The notes beneath the pieces were generated by a model, which saw only the letters and a program-made list of their open reading frames with translations, searched no databases and was not told the DNA's origin. From UHGV virus genome UHGV-1764584: a stretch of 15,232 nucleotides of DNA; one strand, given 5' to 3'. The number at the start of each line of letters is the position of its first letter. Position 1 is the first letter of the stretch. The position numbers and the translations under genes were made by a program. The DNA is from a virus. Shown piece after piece: positions 1-15,232 of the stretch.

Positions 1-183
1 CCCTGGATCTGATTTCAGGCGTTGGGTGTGGATCACTATTGCACCGTTCGTGACACTTTGTCGGTTTACGGATAACCAGGCAGTTATCGGCCCTGACATT
101 TTTTACAGGTCGGCGAGTCTGCGTCTTCCTTCCTTCGAGGATGGCCCTAACCATATCGTCATTAAAAACAACACCACGTTCTT

Positions 184-375
184 TCATTTAGAAGCCACCT
201 TGTTCAATTTCCGGCGACAAGACACGCAATCATCAGGACTCTCAAAAGTGTCTGGCTCACGGTAATCACCAAAATACATCCAACGGCCGCAAATGCTGGT
301 CACTTCACCTTCATTAAAATAATGATGTTTATTCGCCTTCATTGGCCTGACCCATCCGGCATTTTTCTTGCTCAC
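184..375 (-). CDS. Small Cys/His-containing hypothetical protein (about 63 aa), last gene of the wHTH operon
   Basis: A GTG start overlaps the TGA stop of the upstream gene (GTGA coupling) and is preceded by GGAGGAG. An alternative ATG start is at 342. No recognisable family. Confidence 0.3.
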   Translation of the reverse strand: MSKKNAGWVRPMKANKHHYFNEGEVTSICGRWMYFGDYREPDTFESPDDCVSCRRKLNKVASK

Positions 376-737
376 TTCAACTCCTCCCGACGACGTTCCT
401 GAAGCTCTAGCATTGCGGCTCGGAAATCCTGCCACCATTCTTCATCGGCTACTGGGGTGTTCCGCTCCAGCACCTTGTCCGCATCGGCGATCAGGTTTGC
501 CAGACTCTTGTCTGAAATCTTCGTTACCGGAGTCGTTGGTTGCTCAACCTGCCCGATAGGTTTTATCGTGCTCAAAAGGAGGCGACGGCGGGAAAGTGGT
601 GCCCCACAACGACGGCCATCTTCCTTGCGATATGTTTCTTTCGGACCAACACACCAGGTTGTCGGCGTCTCGCGCAACTTCACTTTTTTCTCACCATCAT
701 TGGTAATGATTATTCCGGTATGTGTTTTGATGCTCAT
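372..737 (-). CDS. Hypothetical protein (121 aa), translationally coupled to the upstream wHTH gene
   Basis: Intact ORF whose ATG overlaps the upstream stop (ATGA at 734-737). Charged C-terminal helical region; no family recognised. Confidence 0.45.
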   Translation of the reverse strand: MSIKTHTGIIITNDGEKKVKLRETPTTWCVGPKETYRKEDGRRCGAPLSRRRLLLSTIKPIGQVEQPTTPVTKISDKSLANLIADADKVLERNTPVADEEWWQDFRAAMLELQERRREELK

Positions 738-1015
738 GCCACAGCCCCTCTCAACGGCTTAACTTTGGCTAATAAGGTGTTAAACAACATGGAGTTAGGA
801 TTCATGCCAAATGGCAATTCCGGTTTAGCGGAGTAGTACAGGCAACCATTTATTTTCCTGGTTGTTATCTGTCCTTCGGCAACCATGCTTCTCAGTCTGC
901 AACGCATAGAGTTCTGCGACACACCAATGTGCTCCGCGATTACGTCCACTTTTGAACATGGGTGATCGGTCAGGAAATTAATCACATCTTGGGGGTTAAT
1001 AATTTTGCGTTTCAT
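734..1015 (-). CDS. Small winged-helix DNA-binding regulator (PapI/FaeA-like pattern)
   Basis: ORF trimmed to the Met of MKRKIINPQ, which has an AAGGA Shine-Dalgarno about 10 nt upstream. The stretch VINFLTDHP...VIAEHIGVS...RLRSMVAEGQI fits a wHTH regulator. An AT-rich box lies immediately upstream. Confidence 0.5.
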   Translation of the reverse strand: MKRKIINPQDVINFLTDHPCSKVDVIAEHIGVSQNSMRCRLRSMVAEGQITTRKINGCLYYSAKPELPFGMNPNSMLFNTLLAKVKPLRGAVA

Positions 1016-1030
1016 TGTCGAGGCATCCTT

Positions 1031-1060
1031 ATACATTTATATAAATATATAATTCTATAT
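1031..1060. repeat. AT-rich box (TTTATATAAATATATAATTCTATATA), member of a dispersed repeat family
   Basis: Shares the TATATAAAT and TATAATT(A/C)TATA cores with boxes at 2248-2280, 6001-6030, 6076-6103, 6781-6812 and 11722-11752. Sits in the promoter position of the 734-1015 operon. Confidence 0.5.
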
Positions 1061-1061
1061 A

Positions 1062-1081
1062 CGGCGGGAGACGTCCCGCCG
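1062..1081 (-). terminator. GC-rich hairpin downstream of the DUF3560-like gene (possible terminator)
   Basis: Perfect 8-bp stem CGGCGGGA/TCCCGCCG with a 4-nt loop, 12 nt past the stop at 1093. The following tract is AU-rich rather than a clean U-run. Confidence 0.35.
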
Positions 1082-1092
1082 TAGGCTTACTG

Positions 1093-2160
1093 TCAGGCTT
1101 TCAATAGCGATTCTTTTAGATATCGGGCATCAGCCAGGGCGTTTGGAGTAATCTTGCGAACCCATGCATTACGGGTTGGACTCCACTTAAAGGCGCGTGA
1201 TTTAAGCAGCGAACGAATGTTTGCCTCTGGTTTGCCAGGGAAATAAAACAGGATGCGGTTATCCTCTGGATCTATCTCCATAGAAAAGCCGTCGTATTCT
1301 TCGCGCTGTGCTCCTGTTACAGACTTGACCGATTCAAGCTCCTTAATACGGCTCTGTAGTCGTTTGATTTCGGCGTTATTGTTGCTCAGTGCGTATGAAG
1401 GGAATCCGATGCGCCCACAGAAATCTCCGGCCAGTAACTCTTTGGCTTCGCTTTCTGTAAACCTGAGATCGATTAATGCAGAAAGCTGCTGTAATTGGTC
1501 TTTTTTGTATTTGCGAATGGCCTTATTTGCGGCCTTCATTTTGACGTGTGACTTCATGCAGCCTTGCAGCTTACGAAGCAACTTAAATAGCGCATCAGGA
1601 TCATCAGACGAAATTCCATTACGACCAACACCTGCGGCTTTGCTCTCGTAGTGTGATGCTTTACTTTCGCATTCAACAAACGCTTTTCTTAATAACGCAT
1701 CAGCTTTAGACAAACGGCGGCGATGGCCTTTCGCGCTATAATGGTCAACTAAAATCGGCTGGCCTAACGGGATCACATCCAACAGGTCATGCGCTCGCTT
1801 ATGCGCTACCGCACCTTCTTTTCTGGCTTTTTCTGCACGAGCAATATATCGGGCAAGACGCGCGTTCTGGCGTTCCTGATAGGTGTTTACGTAATCATCT
1901 CCGCGCTGCTGCTGTTCAAGCCATGCTTTGCGCAGATCTTCTGTTACGTCCACCAGCTCCGCAGGGATACAACCAGTTTGGGCTTCATAAGAGTAACCAT
2001 CCTCATAGATGCGCCCATCGTCTTCAACAAAGAAAAAGGTTTCGTGCTCATCGCTTTTGACCATACGACCATTAACATGGCGTAATAGGTAGCCAGTATC
2101 AGTGCTTAACAGGCTGTTAGGGTTGTTGATCCAGTCAGAAATAATTTCTTGTTTATTCAT
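1093..2160 (-). CDS. 355-aa protein, DUF3560-like (family recalled from memory), function unknown
   Basis: Long intact ORF with GGAG 8 nt upstream of the ATG. C-terminal motif FYFPGKPEANIRSLLKSRAFKWSPTRNAWVR resembles DUF3560 proteins. Highly charged K/R/E-rich helical middle region. Confidence 0.65.
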   Translation of the reverse strand: MNKQEIISDWINNPNSLLSTDTGYLLRHVNGRMVKSDEHETFFFVEDDGRIYEDGYSYEAQTGCIPAELVDVTEDLRKAWLEQQQRGDDYVNTYQERQNARLARYIARAEKARKEGAVAHKRAHDLLDVIPLGQPILVDHYSAKGHRRRLSKADALLRKAFVECESKASHYESKAAGVGRNGISSDDPDALFKLLRKLQGCMKSHVKMKAANKAIRKYKKDQLQQLSALIDLRFTESEAKELLAGDFCGRIGFPSYALSNNNAEIKRLQSRIKELESVKSVTGAQREEYDGFSMEIDPEDNRILFYFPGKPEANIRSLLKSRAFKWSPTRNAWVRKITPNALADARYLKESLLKA

Positions 2161-13900: not shown

Positions 13901-13906
13901 GGTGGG

Positions 13907-14755
13907 TTAATGTTGGAGTGATTTCCAGGTCTTTCTTAGCCTGTTATAACGCTGCTCAACGAGGGAGCGTAAATATGCAAGGTCAGCACCAGGATACATG
14001 CCATCAGCAAATTCCTGGCTAACCTCTCTAGTGATTTGATGGCGAAGTTCGGCCTCTCCCTTTTCCTGAACAAGACGCGCAGCTCTCTCCGCTGCTTTCT
14101 GTTTTGCCTTTATCTCTCTGGCCGTCTTCCTCTGACGCCATACATTCTCCATCTGCTCCTGAATAACAATACGCTTATAATCAGCCTCCGTTATCGCTTT
14201 TTTAAGCCGTTCGCTATTCTTCGCATTGAAGTAATTAAGTTTCTGGCTAACCGCACGTCTCCATGCTTGTTCAGTAATACCAACTGTTTCCAGCAGTTGA
14301 TCACGAATCTCGATTTTCGCTGGCCAATACTGTTTATTCACCCGATCCCAGCGACGTTCATAATCAATAAAACCTAACTCTTTCAGTTGCGACAACGCCC
14401 TTGTACAGCGCGTTATAGACTTGTTCCCAGCTTCGGATACGGTAGACAGGCCGCAAAAATCAGCCAACGCCTCAGCACTGGCCAGAACCCGCTTAGAAAT
14501 GATGTTTACATGGTGCAAAATCGCAGCAATCACAGCATTAATCGCCCGACGACGATGCTCGTTTATCCGGCGTTTCCGCTCTGACGGTTGATTAACGTAG
14601 AACGCAACCTCACACGTAAGATCACGACCATTAATGCGCTGTAAAGCATCAGATAACACCAGCGGCAGCTTGTGCGTATGGTGCTTTGGAGGCTGGAACT
14701 CCGGCGACAAATTACAAACGTAAGCTGAACGTAGAGACGGCATTGGTCTATCCAT
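13907..14755 (-). CDS. repA: IncFII-family replication initiator RepA1
   Basis: RRRAINAVIAAILHH...VLASAEALADFCGLSTVSEAGNKSITRCTRALSQLKELGFIDYERRWD aligns by eye with R100/R1 RepA1. Start set at the internal Met (MDRPMPS), giving 282 aa against about 285 for RepA1; the open frame extends to 14899. Confidence 0.8.
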   Translation of the reverse strand: MDRPMPSLRSAYVCNLSPEFQPPKHHTHKLPLVLSDALQRINGRDLTCEVAFYVNQPSERKRRINEHRRRAINAVIAAILHHVNIISKRVLASAEALADFCGLSTVSEAGNKSITRCTRALSQLKELGFIDYERRWDRVNKQYWPAKIEIRDQLLETVGITEQAWRRAVSQKLNYFNAKNSERLKKAITEADYKRIVIQEQMENVWRQRKTAREIKAKQKAAERAARLVQEKGEAELRHQITREVSQEFADGMYPGADLAYLRSLVEQRYNRLRKTWKSLQH

Positions 14756-14765
14756 ATGTTCGCTC

Positions 14766-14882
14766 TTGCGTCCACGGAAAACCAACGTATAATGGGAGTT
14801 GTCGAGGCGCCCATGGTTAGTTGTTGGTTTTCCTTTCCGTGGATGTCGCAAGAAGCCCGCAGATTTATCTGCGGGCTTTTTG
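14766..14882 (+). ncRNA. CopA-like antisense RNA with its promoter, opposite the repA leader
   Basis: -35 TTGCGT (14766-14771), 16 bp, -10 TATAAT (14788-14793). Terminator stem AAGCCCGCAGA/TCTGCGGGCTT (14853-14878) followed by TTTTTGTTT. The RNA would be about 83 nt, complementary to the region 45-130 nt upstream of the repA start. Confidence 0.55.
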
Positions 14883-14913
14883 TTTCCATATCTGGTCACT
14901 TTTCAACCAGACA

Positions 14914-14941
14914 CCCACAATCATAACCACGTTACGTGGTT
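14914..14941. promoter_or_regulatory. Palindromic operator candidate in the repA promoter region
   Basis: AACCACG-T-TACGTGGTT (14925-14941, 8-bp arms) preceded by CCCACAATC (14914-14922), identical to the left 9 nt of O6. On the minus strand it lies just upstream of a TATGAT -10 candidate. Confidence 0.4.
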
Positions 14942-15070
14942 TTAAGAGAACTCTACCACAACACTTTCGGTCATGCACGAAGTCTCTCACTGATCGAACG
15001 ATAATCCACCAGTAAAAGGATCTAAATTGGATCTCGTTTTGCGAGCATCATACTACTGGCCTAACTCCAG

Positions 15071-15220
15071 TCAATGATTCCCAGCCGGAAACCTGCGGTA
15101 AAGCGTGGATAAGGTAACATCGAAGATAATCGCTATCCGCTTACGTGAAACACCATTCGCAATAAGCCTTCCGATCTGGGGTTCTACGCCGGAACCGCCG
15201 GAATTTCCGGCCTGTGATTT
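15071..15220 (-). pseudogene. Remnant of a serine recombinase (resolvase/invertase) C-terminal HTH
   Basis: Minus-strand frame reads ...PQIGRLIANGVSRKRIAIIFDVTLSTLYRRFPAGNH*, matching the Hin/Gin/resolvase C-terminal HTH. The frame is closed by an in-frame stop at 15221-15223 with no start codon. Confidence 0.35.
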
Positions 15221-15232
15221 TTAGTGGTCCTT

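Follow-up and report, generated by a model that had tools for sequence, protein, structure and literature searches.

The 15,232-nt stretch of viral DNA analysed here (UHGV virus genome UHGV-1764584, hereafter the window) is, with a probability that we put at about 0.85, the third of a circular temperate-myovirus phage-plasmid of about 48 kb in which the replication, partition, immunity and early genes are located. The element from which it comes is a myovirus of 47-50 kb that is kept as a low-copy circular plasmid, and genes for plasmid maintenance and for phage regulation are interleaved across the whole window, as had been proposed in an original prediction made from the DNA letters alone. 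Six of the ten components named in that prediction (RepA, ParA, the toxin-antitoxin pair, CI, Ref and Ant) pass curated family thresholds, while the other four (CopA, Q, Cro and ParG) do not and are replaced below by more cautious assignments. The prediction was also correct that structural, lysis and integrase genes are absent from the window; to its inventory we add the 3' end of a DNA invertase gene and the end of an insertion sequence (IS). The coordinates of all features are collected in Table 1.

The window belongs to a family of circular myovirus phage-plasmids

Window bases 56-15232 were compared with the plasmids of PLSDB and with complete E. coli genomes. At least 80% of the window is found at 97-99% identity in 28 PLSDB plasmids and 38 complete E. 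coli genomes (coverage 80-98%); these counts are lower bounds, and the real number of relatives is higher because many records are cut at the origin. The best 60 E. coli records are without exception separate replicons (60/60; 31-57 kb, mostly 47-50 kb), with none chromosomal, and they include several independent assemblies of ATCC 25922, each of 48,488 bp. Close full-length relatives are circular, non-mobilizable replicons of about 47-50 kb. At the DNA level the repA replicon is common to 64 plasmids, hosted by Escherichia species, Salmonella and Klebsiella, and as 64/64 of these are typed non-mobilizable, the usual plasmid transfer functions are absent. The family, which is present in about 1% of complete E. 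coli genomes (ATCC 25922 included), also occurs in E. albertii, E. fergusonii, Salmonella and Klebsiella.

The evidence for virion genes comes from these relatives, the window showing only part of its own replicon. Complete relatives encode packaging and head functions (terminase, portal, ClpP-type protease, decoration and capsid proteins), a contractile tail (sheath, tube, tape measure, baseplate, and tail fibres with an invertase), two holins and one endolysin, as well as methyltransferases. This virion, packaging and lysis set is seen in relatives that are 97-99% identical to the window and in one that is 74% identical. The tail-fibre region is invertible, with opposed assembly genes beside a serine invertase, and the last bases of the window are the 3' end of that invertase gene, which is annotated as hin, pinE or recombinase in relatives. 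Three Yersinia pestis myophages, vB_YpM_39/41/44, deposited in GenBank as isolates (host Y. pestis EV76-CN), are 98% identical to the window. Together with the relatives of about 48 kb that carry virion genes, these isolates support the phage-plasmid alternative that the original prediction had offered. The terminase of the relatives is 63-65% identical to those of the Vibrio myophages X29, phi 2 and Rostov 7.

The backbone order repA, toxin-antitoxin, parG/parA, cI, cro-like gene, Ref, DUF1064 and Q-like gene is kept down to 30% CI identity. The most divergent case is a Logan contig, L007 (SRR29693879_1978, 1-18568), in which CI is 30% and the Q-like protein 59% identical and the same order is retained. 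Directly before the terminase gene, complete relatives also encode several proteins with ParB/Srx N-terminal domains, fused or adjacent to methyltransferases (L001, 40052-44483; L019, 874-3600); these are not partition ParB proteins.

The family has been entered in a plasmid survey as 'phage plasmid 49,269' (PMC7822866), and is otherwise mentioned in the literature in the form of partial prophage predictions. A survey of Enterobacteriaceae screens only for the P1, D6, SSU5 and N15 groups (bioRxiv 10.1101/2025.09.12.675607). The pSLy3 group was considered as an identity for the family and rejected, pSLy3 being a 114-kb SSU5-like element.

Alternative readings of the window

The window begins with the end of an IS100kyp-type element, at a point where relatives continue with early genes. 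Relatives align from base 56 on only, so that bases 1-55 mark where the window copy departs from them, and when these bases are left out, matching E. coli records fall from 3985 to 395. The IS end therefore indicates an insertion in the distal early operon of the window copy. This raises the alternative that the window derives from a decaying, IS-disrupted element that has kept replication, partition and addiction and no longer makes virions. Family members with IS21, IS3 and IS26 insertions and shortened records of 31-39 kb fit such decay, and two addiction systems would retain a dead phage. However, the regulatory and maintenance open reading frames (ORFs) in the window are all intact and 97-99% identical to those of isolated phages, and the IS sits past the Q-like gene, where relatives differ among themselves. 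We therefore regard a decayed copy as unlikely.

A second alternative, also raised in the original prediction, is that an ordinary plasmid captured the cI/cro, Q-like and ant cascade to control accessory genes, with no virion stage in the family. The window does lack structural and lysis genes, and the closest relatives of its RepA outside the family sit on ordinary plasmids. Yet in every near-full-length relative the replicon of about 48 kb also holds a complete myovirus module, three relatives entered GenBank as phage isolates, and the plasmids that share the replicon are, as noted, uniformly non-mobilizable. With a phage-plasmid supported, plasmid capture is not needed to explain the window, and we consider it very improbable. 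Finally, that the window is a chromosomal prophage fragment with a vestigial rep gene, the outcome that the prediction had named as its refutation, is hardly credible: partial matches (ryfA, isrK/C4 and the IS end) do occur at 208 chromosomal places, but the best E. coli matches are all separate replicons, neither the window nor complete relatives contain an integrase gene or attachment site (the serine invertase being the only recombinase), and the window holds a full-length RepA gene with a leader antisense RNA, a DnaA box and a partition operon.

An IncFII-type replicon with a candidate antisense RNA

The assignment of the initiator as an IncFII RepA is confirmed at the level of the superfamily, with 151 bits to Pfam IncFII_repA (cut-off 22.9) and 233 bits to NCBIfam RepA_IncFII_LM (cut-off 70). 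The protein falls below the strict NCBIfam model incFII_RepA (TIGR03474; 82 vs 446.9 bits) and is about 32% identical to classical IncFII RepA across 45% of its length; a search of GTDB representative genomes with it gave no match. We also considered whether the Enterobacter plasmid that carries the next-closest RepA is a phage-plasmid, and rejected this, as it is an ordinary plasmid with a type IV secretion system (T4SS) and KPC. No other replication module is annotated in complete relatives. RepA would act at the AT-rich candidate origin downstream of its gene, which contains a perfect DnaA box (TTATCCACA, 13757-13765).

Opposite the repA leader, which is about 300 nt long and includes the antisense region, lies a candidate antisense RNA with a minimum free energy of -63.6 kcal/mol (z = -8.2). 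Among relatives its terminator stem shows a compensatory change from A-T to G-C, and its loop region is invariant. This RNA is an analogue of CopA outside the CopA family, and it would limit RepA synthesis; thus the CopA of the original prediction stands as a stable antisense RNA-like element and not as a member of the named family. The sole Rfam matches of the leader, to the families Thr-leader and CsrC, are spurious and due to the terminator hairpin. An ATG in the invariant antisense-target loop (CCATGGGCGCC..., 14813 onward, minus strand) opens a frame that is +1 relative to repA and crosses the repA start; it does not encode a short tap-like peptide. Two candidate promoters precede repA, the inner one beside a palindrome that is discussed below, and the interval between the invertase stop and repA contains no ORF suitable as copB.

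The replicon thus resembles those of R1 and R100 in having a RepA within Pfam IncFII_repA, an antisense RNA with a terminator opposite the leader, and an origin with a DnaA box downstream. It differs from them in the low identity of RepA and in lacking an Rfam CopA, copB and a tap-like peptide.

Immunity region and operators

The cI/cro switch of the original prediction is borne out for CI, which matches HTH_3 at 43 bits and belongs to a PHROG of repressors, and less so for Cro. A profile of five family members of the cro-like gene product, compared with PDB, retrieved only P22 Cro (1rzs, E 0.35) and the Cro-family protein XPH1 (E 0.77), both over residues 5-59, so that the N-terminus is only weakly like Cro. 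The C-terminal domain of CI scores 18.4 bits against Peptidase_S24, under the cut-off of 23.3. In a MAFFT alignment of three family members with LexA and lambda CI, the positions of the LexA S119/K156 dyad are occupied by Leu and Arg. CI thus apparently lacks the Ser/Lys autocleavage dyad and is probably not cleavable. No LexA box (CTGT-N8-ACAG) is present in the window. Given these two observations, an antirepressor is probably required for induction.

Four palindromes of the type ACCAC-N5-GTGGT lie within 174 bp between the divergent cI and cro-like genes, and the window as a whole contains 5 sites of this operator type against 0.23 expected. CI is predicted to bind these operators, which separate its gene from the early operon headed by the cro-like gene.

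An IsrK-C4-ant antirepressor module

Downstream of the partition operon, the window contains a complete IsrK-C4-small ORF-ant module of the P1/Gifsy-1 type. The leader RNA matches Rfam isrK at 67.7 bits (cut-off 50) and contains sites of the a1/b1 type, TTGGAAC at 7989 and GACACAATG at 8002. One loop of the C4 RNA, GTCATTGTG, is complementary to the site at 8002 and to 8199-8207, where the ATG at 8203 is the start of the small ORF; the other, GTTCCAA, is complementary to the sites at 7989 and 8153. The 63-aa ORF overlaps ant by the sequence ATGA. The Ant antirepressor of the original prediction is well supported, with 72.6 bits to ORF6N, 47.1 bits to Phage_pRha and many matches to PHROGs labelled 'anti-repressor'.

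By analogy with the known systems, we infer that this module regulates the antirepressor. C4 RNA would pair over the start codon of the small ORF, to which ant would be translationally coupled, and the IsrK-like leader RNA would present decoy copies of the C4 target sites. With CI apparently non-cleavable, induction would go through the antirepressor. In Gifsy-1, the homologous locus gates antirepressor translation through the coupling of orf45 to anrP and drives a Q-like gene and induction (PMC4825925). The likeness to Gifsy-1 extends to order, IsrK, a processed C4-like RNA (STnc1160), a short coupled ORF and the antirepressor following each other in both. Gifsy-1 differs in being an integrated lambdoid prophage with AntQ upstream of isrK, whereas the module in the window sits between the partition operon and accessory genes.

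After ant, about 0.8 kb (9543-10351) holds no convincing ORF, and the GC skew there is strongly negative. Two intrinsic terminators (9547-9564 and 10277-10304) fall within it, relatives annotate solely an ORF of 60-70 aa in this stretch, and Rfam at a permissive threshold found nothing credible in it.

Partition operon and dispersed repeat arrays

Of the ParA/ParG-like pair in the original prediction, ParA is secure at the level of the CbiA/ParA/MipZ family (against NCBIfam ParA_partition it scores 78 bits, under the cut-off of 180), and ParG is not: the 82-aa protein encoded next to ParA has no family, PDB or fold match, ParG and omega included. An AlphaFold2 model of this protein, consisting of a disordered tail followed by two helices (predicted local distance difference test score 65), fits a ribbon-helix-helix protein at low confidence.

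The parA gene is preceded by arrays of an 8-bp repeat that recur elsewhere in the window. Intergenic arrays are located at 1037-1060, 2246-2269 and 11722-11745 and, near the par operon, at 6008-6031, 6081-6104 and 6789-6812, the last being a shorter one before the 82-aa gene. Five loci have arrays of at least three units (WWATA[GTA]AW), namely those before the MarR-like gene, the DUF3560 gene, parA (twice) and orf126, against 0.007 expected from composition-preserving shuffles. Whole plasmids contain seven array sites, the structural half being free of them, and in the Salmonella relative arrays occupy equivalent positions between genes. A 108-nt cassette made up of an array, a promoter-like site (TTTACA-17-TAAGGT) and a 5' untranslated region (UTR) is present at 2167-2274 (minus strand), upstream of the DUF3560 gene, and duplicated with 96% identity at 11643-11750 (minus strand), upstream of orf126; the duplication suggests that these two genes are co-regulated.

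The simplest reading of the arrays is that they are binding sites for the ParA partner and would double as centromere and operators. The small ParA, its 82-aa putative DNA-binding partner and the arrays would together segregate plasmid copies. Such an arrangement resembles the type Ib system ParF/ParG of TP228, in which a small ParA without an N-terminal DNA-binding domain is followed by a tiny two-helix protein with a disordered tail and short-repeat arrays lie upstream of the par operon, and it resembles the omega system of pSM19035 in that similar arrays also occur at other promoters. No match in sequence or fold links the 82-aa protein to ParG or omega, and it is a putative binder of the arrays.

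Early operon and late-gene control

A long early operon runs leftward (minus strand) from about 4680. It would supply Ref, the DUF1064 nuclease and a 125-aa factor with resemblance to sigma region 4 and Q21. Ref was correctly named in the original prediction, with 44.7 bits to RecA_dep_nuc. The Q-like antiterminator does not stand as named: the 125-aa protein has no Pfam match at E<=10 and no PDB sequence match, and its resemblance to sigma region 4 and Q21 is at the level of the fold only. For PA0613, the literature gives only 'regulatory gene' adjoining the pyocin holin. The C-terminal half of the DUF3560 protein resembles phrog_19458 'primase' (E 2e-37), and the distal early genes (184-1036) are also annotated in relatives.

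Between positions 1 and 4400 we found 0 sigma-70 promoter-like sites against 5.7 expected from shuffles, which fits one long early transcript that relies on read-through. Outside the window, in the complete relative CP099184.1 (L001), a strong intrinsic terminator (34814-34841; an 11-bp GC-rich stem and a T-run, comparable to lambda tR') ends 20 nt short of the first of the two holin genes; a late promoter could not be identified. A terminator before the holin is the situation that an antiterminator would serve, and it is probably the 125-aa factor that enables RNA polymerase to pass this terminator.

Toxin-antitoxin systems and accessory genes

The toxin-antitoxin pair of the original prediction is confirmed as a HigB/Gp49-family toxin with a helix-turn-helix (HTH) antitoxin. 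A search for defence systems with PADLOC gave no match in the window save a weak similarity of this toxin to NsnC. A second addiction system, not named in the original prediction, is formed by a ryfA/timP type I toxin RNA and a divergent TimR-like candidate antitoxin RNA. The latter contains 15 nt complementary to the ryfA 5' UTR (7770-7784 vs 7505-7519), about 60 nt upstream of the ATG, and the layout of the pair agrees with the TimP/TimR criteria of PMC7667032. As judged from their families, the type II HigB and the type I TimP/TimR pairs would kill or arrest cells that lose the element. Some relatives have an XRE-family regulator where the ryfA locus sits, and this position is therefore an accessory slot.

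Table 1. Features of the 15,232-nt window, in order of position (aa, amino acids)
Feature	Position	Strand	Description
IS end	1-55		Last 55 bp of an IS100kyp-type element (IS21 family); 100% identical to sequence adjoining istA/istB in phage 500465-1
Small ORF	184-438	-	phrog_2358
orf121	372-737	-	phrog_7520
Winged-helix MarR-like gene	734-1036	-	Annotated start 1015; phrog_1687 'MarR family'
DUF3560 protein	1093-2160	-	Pfam DUF3560 107 bits; phrog_6744
125-aa regulator, Q-like	2330-2707	-	Sigma-region-4-like/Q21-like fold; candidate late-gene antiterminator or activator
DUF1064 protein	2711-3043	-	Pfam DUF1064 68.8 bits; phrog_190, PHROG label Holliday-junction resolvase
Ref RecA-dependent nuclease	3040-3444	-	RecA_dep_nuc cut-off 26.9 bits
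Two early genes, 77 aa and 171 aa	3444-4189	-	phrog_5358, phrog_7047; no Pfam match
cro-like gene	4186-4680	-	First early-operon gene, divergent from cI; 164 aa, HTH N-terminus plus extension of about 100 aa
Operator region cI/cro	4699-4816		ACCAC-N5-GTGGT at 4699 and 4802; degenerate copies at 4720 and 4762
CI-like repressor	4854-5510	+	N-terminal HTH and C-terminal S24-like domain; phrog_4 repressor
Operator palindrome copy	5553-5567		Fourth exact copy, just after cI, before orf124-parA; conserved in Salmonella relative
orf124	5603-5977	+	Between cI and parA; phrog_7632; in L007 and L019
8-bp repeat arrays	6000-6112		TTATAGAT/TTATATAA; two arrays abut parA start codon; candidate par operator and centromere
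ParA	6113-6781	+	Small Walker type, 222 aa
Candidate centromere-binding protein	6825-7073	+	82 aa
ryfA/timP type I toxin RNA	7296-7592	-	Rfam RF00126 144.5 bits (cut-off 80); 40-aa TimP-like peptide, ATG 7446, MKKYCMCIFIVVTGALF...
TimR-like antitoxin small RNA candidate	7740-7870	+	TATAAT promoter; intrinsic terminator; divergent from ryfA
Promoter and IsrK-like leader RNA with terminator	7929-8036	+	TTGACA at 7929; Rfam isrK 7964-8036
C4 antisense RNA	8061-8149	+	Rfam RF01695 77.8 bits (cut-off 45); loops GUCAUUGUGUC and GUUCCAA
C4 target sites	8153, 8199-8207	+	TTGGAAC at 8153; CACAATGAC at 8199-8207 spans ATG
Small ORF before ant	8203-8394	+	63 aa, icd/orf45 position
Antirepressor ant	8391-9542	+	ORF6N/Rha; ATGA overlap at 8391-8394
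90-aa HTH protein	10352-10624	-	Accessory
orf141	10726-11151	+	Accessory; missing from several relatives
orf126	11255-11635	-	Accessory
HTH antitoxin	11799-12098	-	HTH_3 40 bits; abuts toxin gene at 12098, one operon, downstream of toxin
HigB/Gp49-family toxin	12098-12451	-	Pfam Gp49 81.2 bits (cut-off 23.9)
Two small conserved genes, 96 aa and 99 aa	12689-13275	-	Between origin and toxin-antitoxin; phrog_4595, phrog_8351; no Pfam match
Candidate oriR region	13300-13906	-	AT-rich, GC 0.415; short repeats; one perfect DnaA box
RepA initiator	13907-14743	-	IncFII/IncL-M superfamily; start 14743 picked by conservation across relatives
Antisense RNA candidate, CopA-analogous	14768-14885	+	Opposite repA leader; long hairpin and perfect intrinsic terminator
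Operator-type palindrome	14926-14940		ACCACGTTACGTGGT in repA leader, directly upstream of TATGAT hexamer
repA leader promoter-like site	15047-15074	-	TTGACT-16-TATGAT; 10/12 matches; conserved in L019 and L014
Invertase 3' end	15071-15232	-	Last 162 bases; Hin/Pin/Cin-type DNA invertase of tail-fibre switch; translation ...IIFDVTLSTLYRRFPAGNH*

Possible coupling of immunity to replication

Relatives of 47-50 kb contain the operator palindrome in exact form at just four places: two between cI and cro, one directly after cI, and one in the repA leader. The arms of the leader copy are invariant and its central five bases vary (in the Salmonella relative at 74% DNA identity and in two IMG/VR contigs). 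In R1, CopB holds down repA. The palindrome in the leader, together with the lack of copB, suggests that CI doubles as a transcriptional governor of repA. CI may hold repA down and release RepA on induction, a hypothesis that we advance tentatively. In a fuller and equally tentative form, CI would have taken over the role of CopB, its dosage would steady copy number and its loss would free RepA for lytic amplification, and the ParA partner would act as a global regulator through the 8-bp arrays at at least seven promoters. If this is true, one replicon serves both the plasmid and the lytic state, and the ParA partner links partition to early-gene and accessory-gene expression.

Several observations weigh against the account given here, in whole or in part. 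With regard to the control of repA by CI, a KPC-3 T4SS plasmid whose RepA is 36% identical (L020; NZ_CP109728.1, 24660-24690) has ACCAC-N8-GTGGT in its repA leader, and the palindrome arms may therefore belong to the replicon lineage and not to CI; the TATGAT hexamer beside the palindrome is not conserved in the relative L015. The one heteroimmune relative, L007, is represented by a contig whose sequence begins at the antisense terminator and so comes without the leader, and the other relatives share the same operator. With regard to copy-number control, the repA leader has no match to Rfam CopA, either with the gathering threshold or at E<=1, no promoter could be identified for the antisense RNA, and no ORF that could encode a tap-like leader peptide ends at the repA start. 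With regard to induction, the loss of the dyad is read from an alignment that is gapped at the Ser motif, the search for a LexA box was negative, and L007 does not have the IsrK-C4-ant module at the equivalent position, so that the module is accessory. The matches behind the Q-like, Cro-like and ParG-like assignments are either not significant or of low confidence. As for the phage-plasmid as a whole, the remainder of the window's own replicon lies outside the window and the IS end disrupts the distal early operon, and this copy may be defective; particle formation rests on GenBank records of isolates; and our search of the literature found passing mentions of the family and no study of it or experiment on it.

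Relation to N15 and P1

N15 has a lambdoid repressor/Cro switch whose repressor is not cleaved through RecA, and its induction runs via an antirepressor locus under the control of a small RNA. It also has a Q-type late factor, partition sites dispersed over the genome, and a replication gene under the influence of the prophage repressor. The regulatory logic of the window matches that of N15 and of its relatives, phiKO2 among them, a likeness that holds by the description of N15 rather than by protein comparison. N15, however, is a siphovirus whose plasmid is linear and which encodes a protelomerase and a primase-type RepA. Members of the family described here are circular and of the myovirus type; they have an IncFII-superfamily RepA, an antisense RNA and a small ParA, and no protelomerase is present.

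P1 shares with the window a C4 RNA with two loop sequences that are repeated as flanking targets, followed by a small ORF and a coupled ant; it also shares the Ref nuclease, a serine invertase beside opposed tail-fibre assembly genes, and a circular plasmid prophage. P1 differs in its size of about 94 kb, in a C1 repressor that is not of the HTH/S24 type, and in having an iteron RepA, ParAB-parS and a separate lytic replicon. Against these, the window has an antirepressor of the ORF6N/Rha type and a main repressor that is like lambda CI.

Significance

The phage-plasmid family is under-described, and it brings together known modules in a combination that is new. Only two of its features might be called surprising, namely the operator inside the repA leader and the scattered arrays of repeats. 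Phage-plasmids are increasingly regarded as vehicles for resistance and virulence genes, and the control region analysed here joins an R1-type replicon, lambda-type immunity, the immI module of P1 and logic like that of N15. A smaller, practical consequence is that typing tools should recognise the RepA of this family, whose replicons are now reported as untypable cryptic plasmids. For the biology of the family, ATCC 25922 offers a compact and easily obtained system in which to study how one replicon switches between plasmid maintenance and lytic growth.

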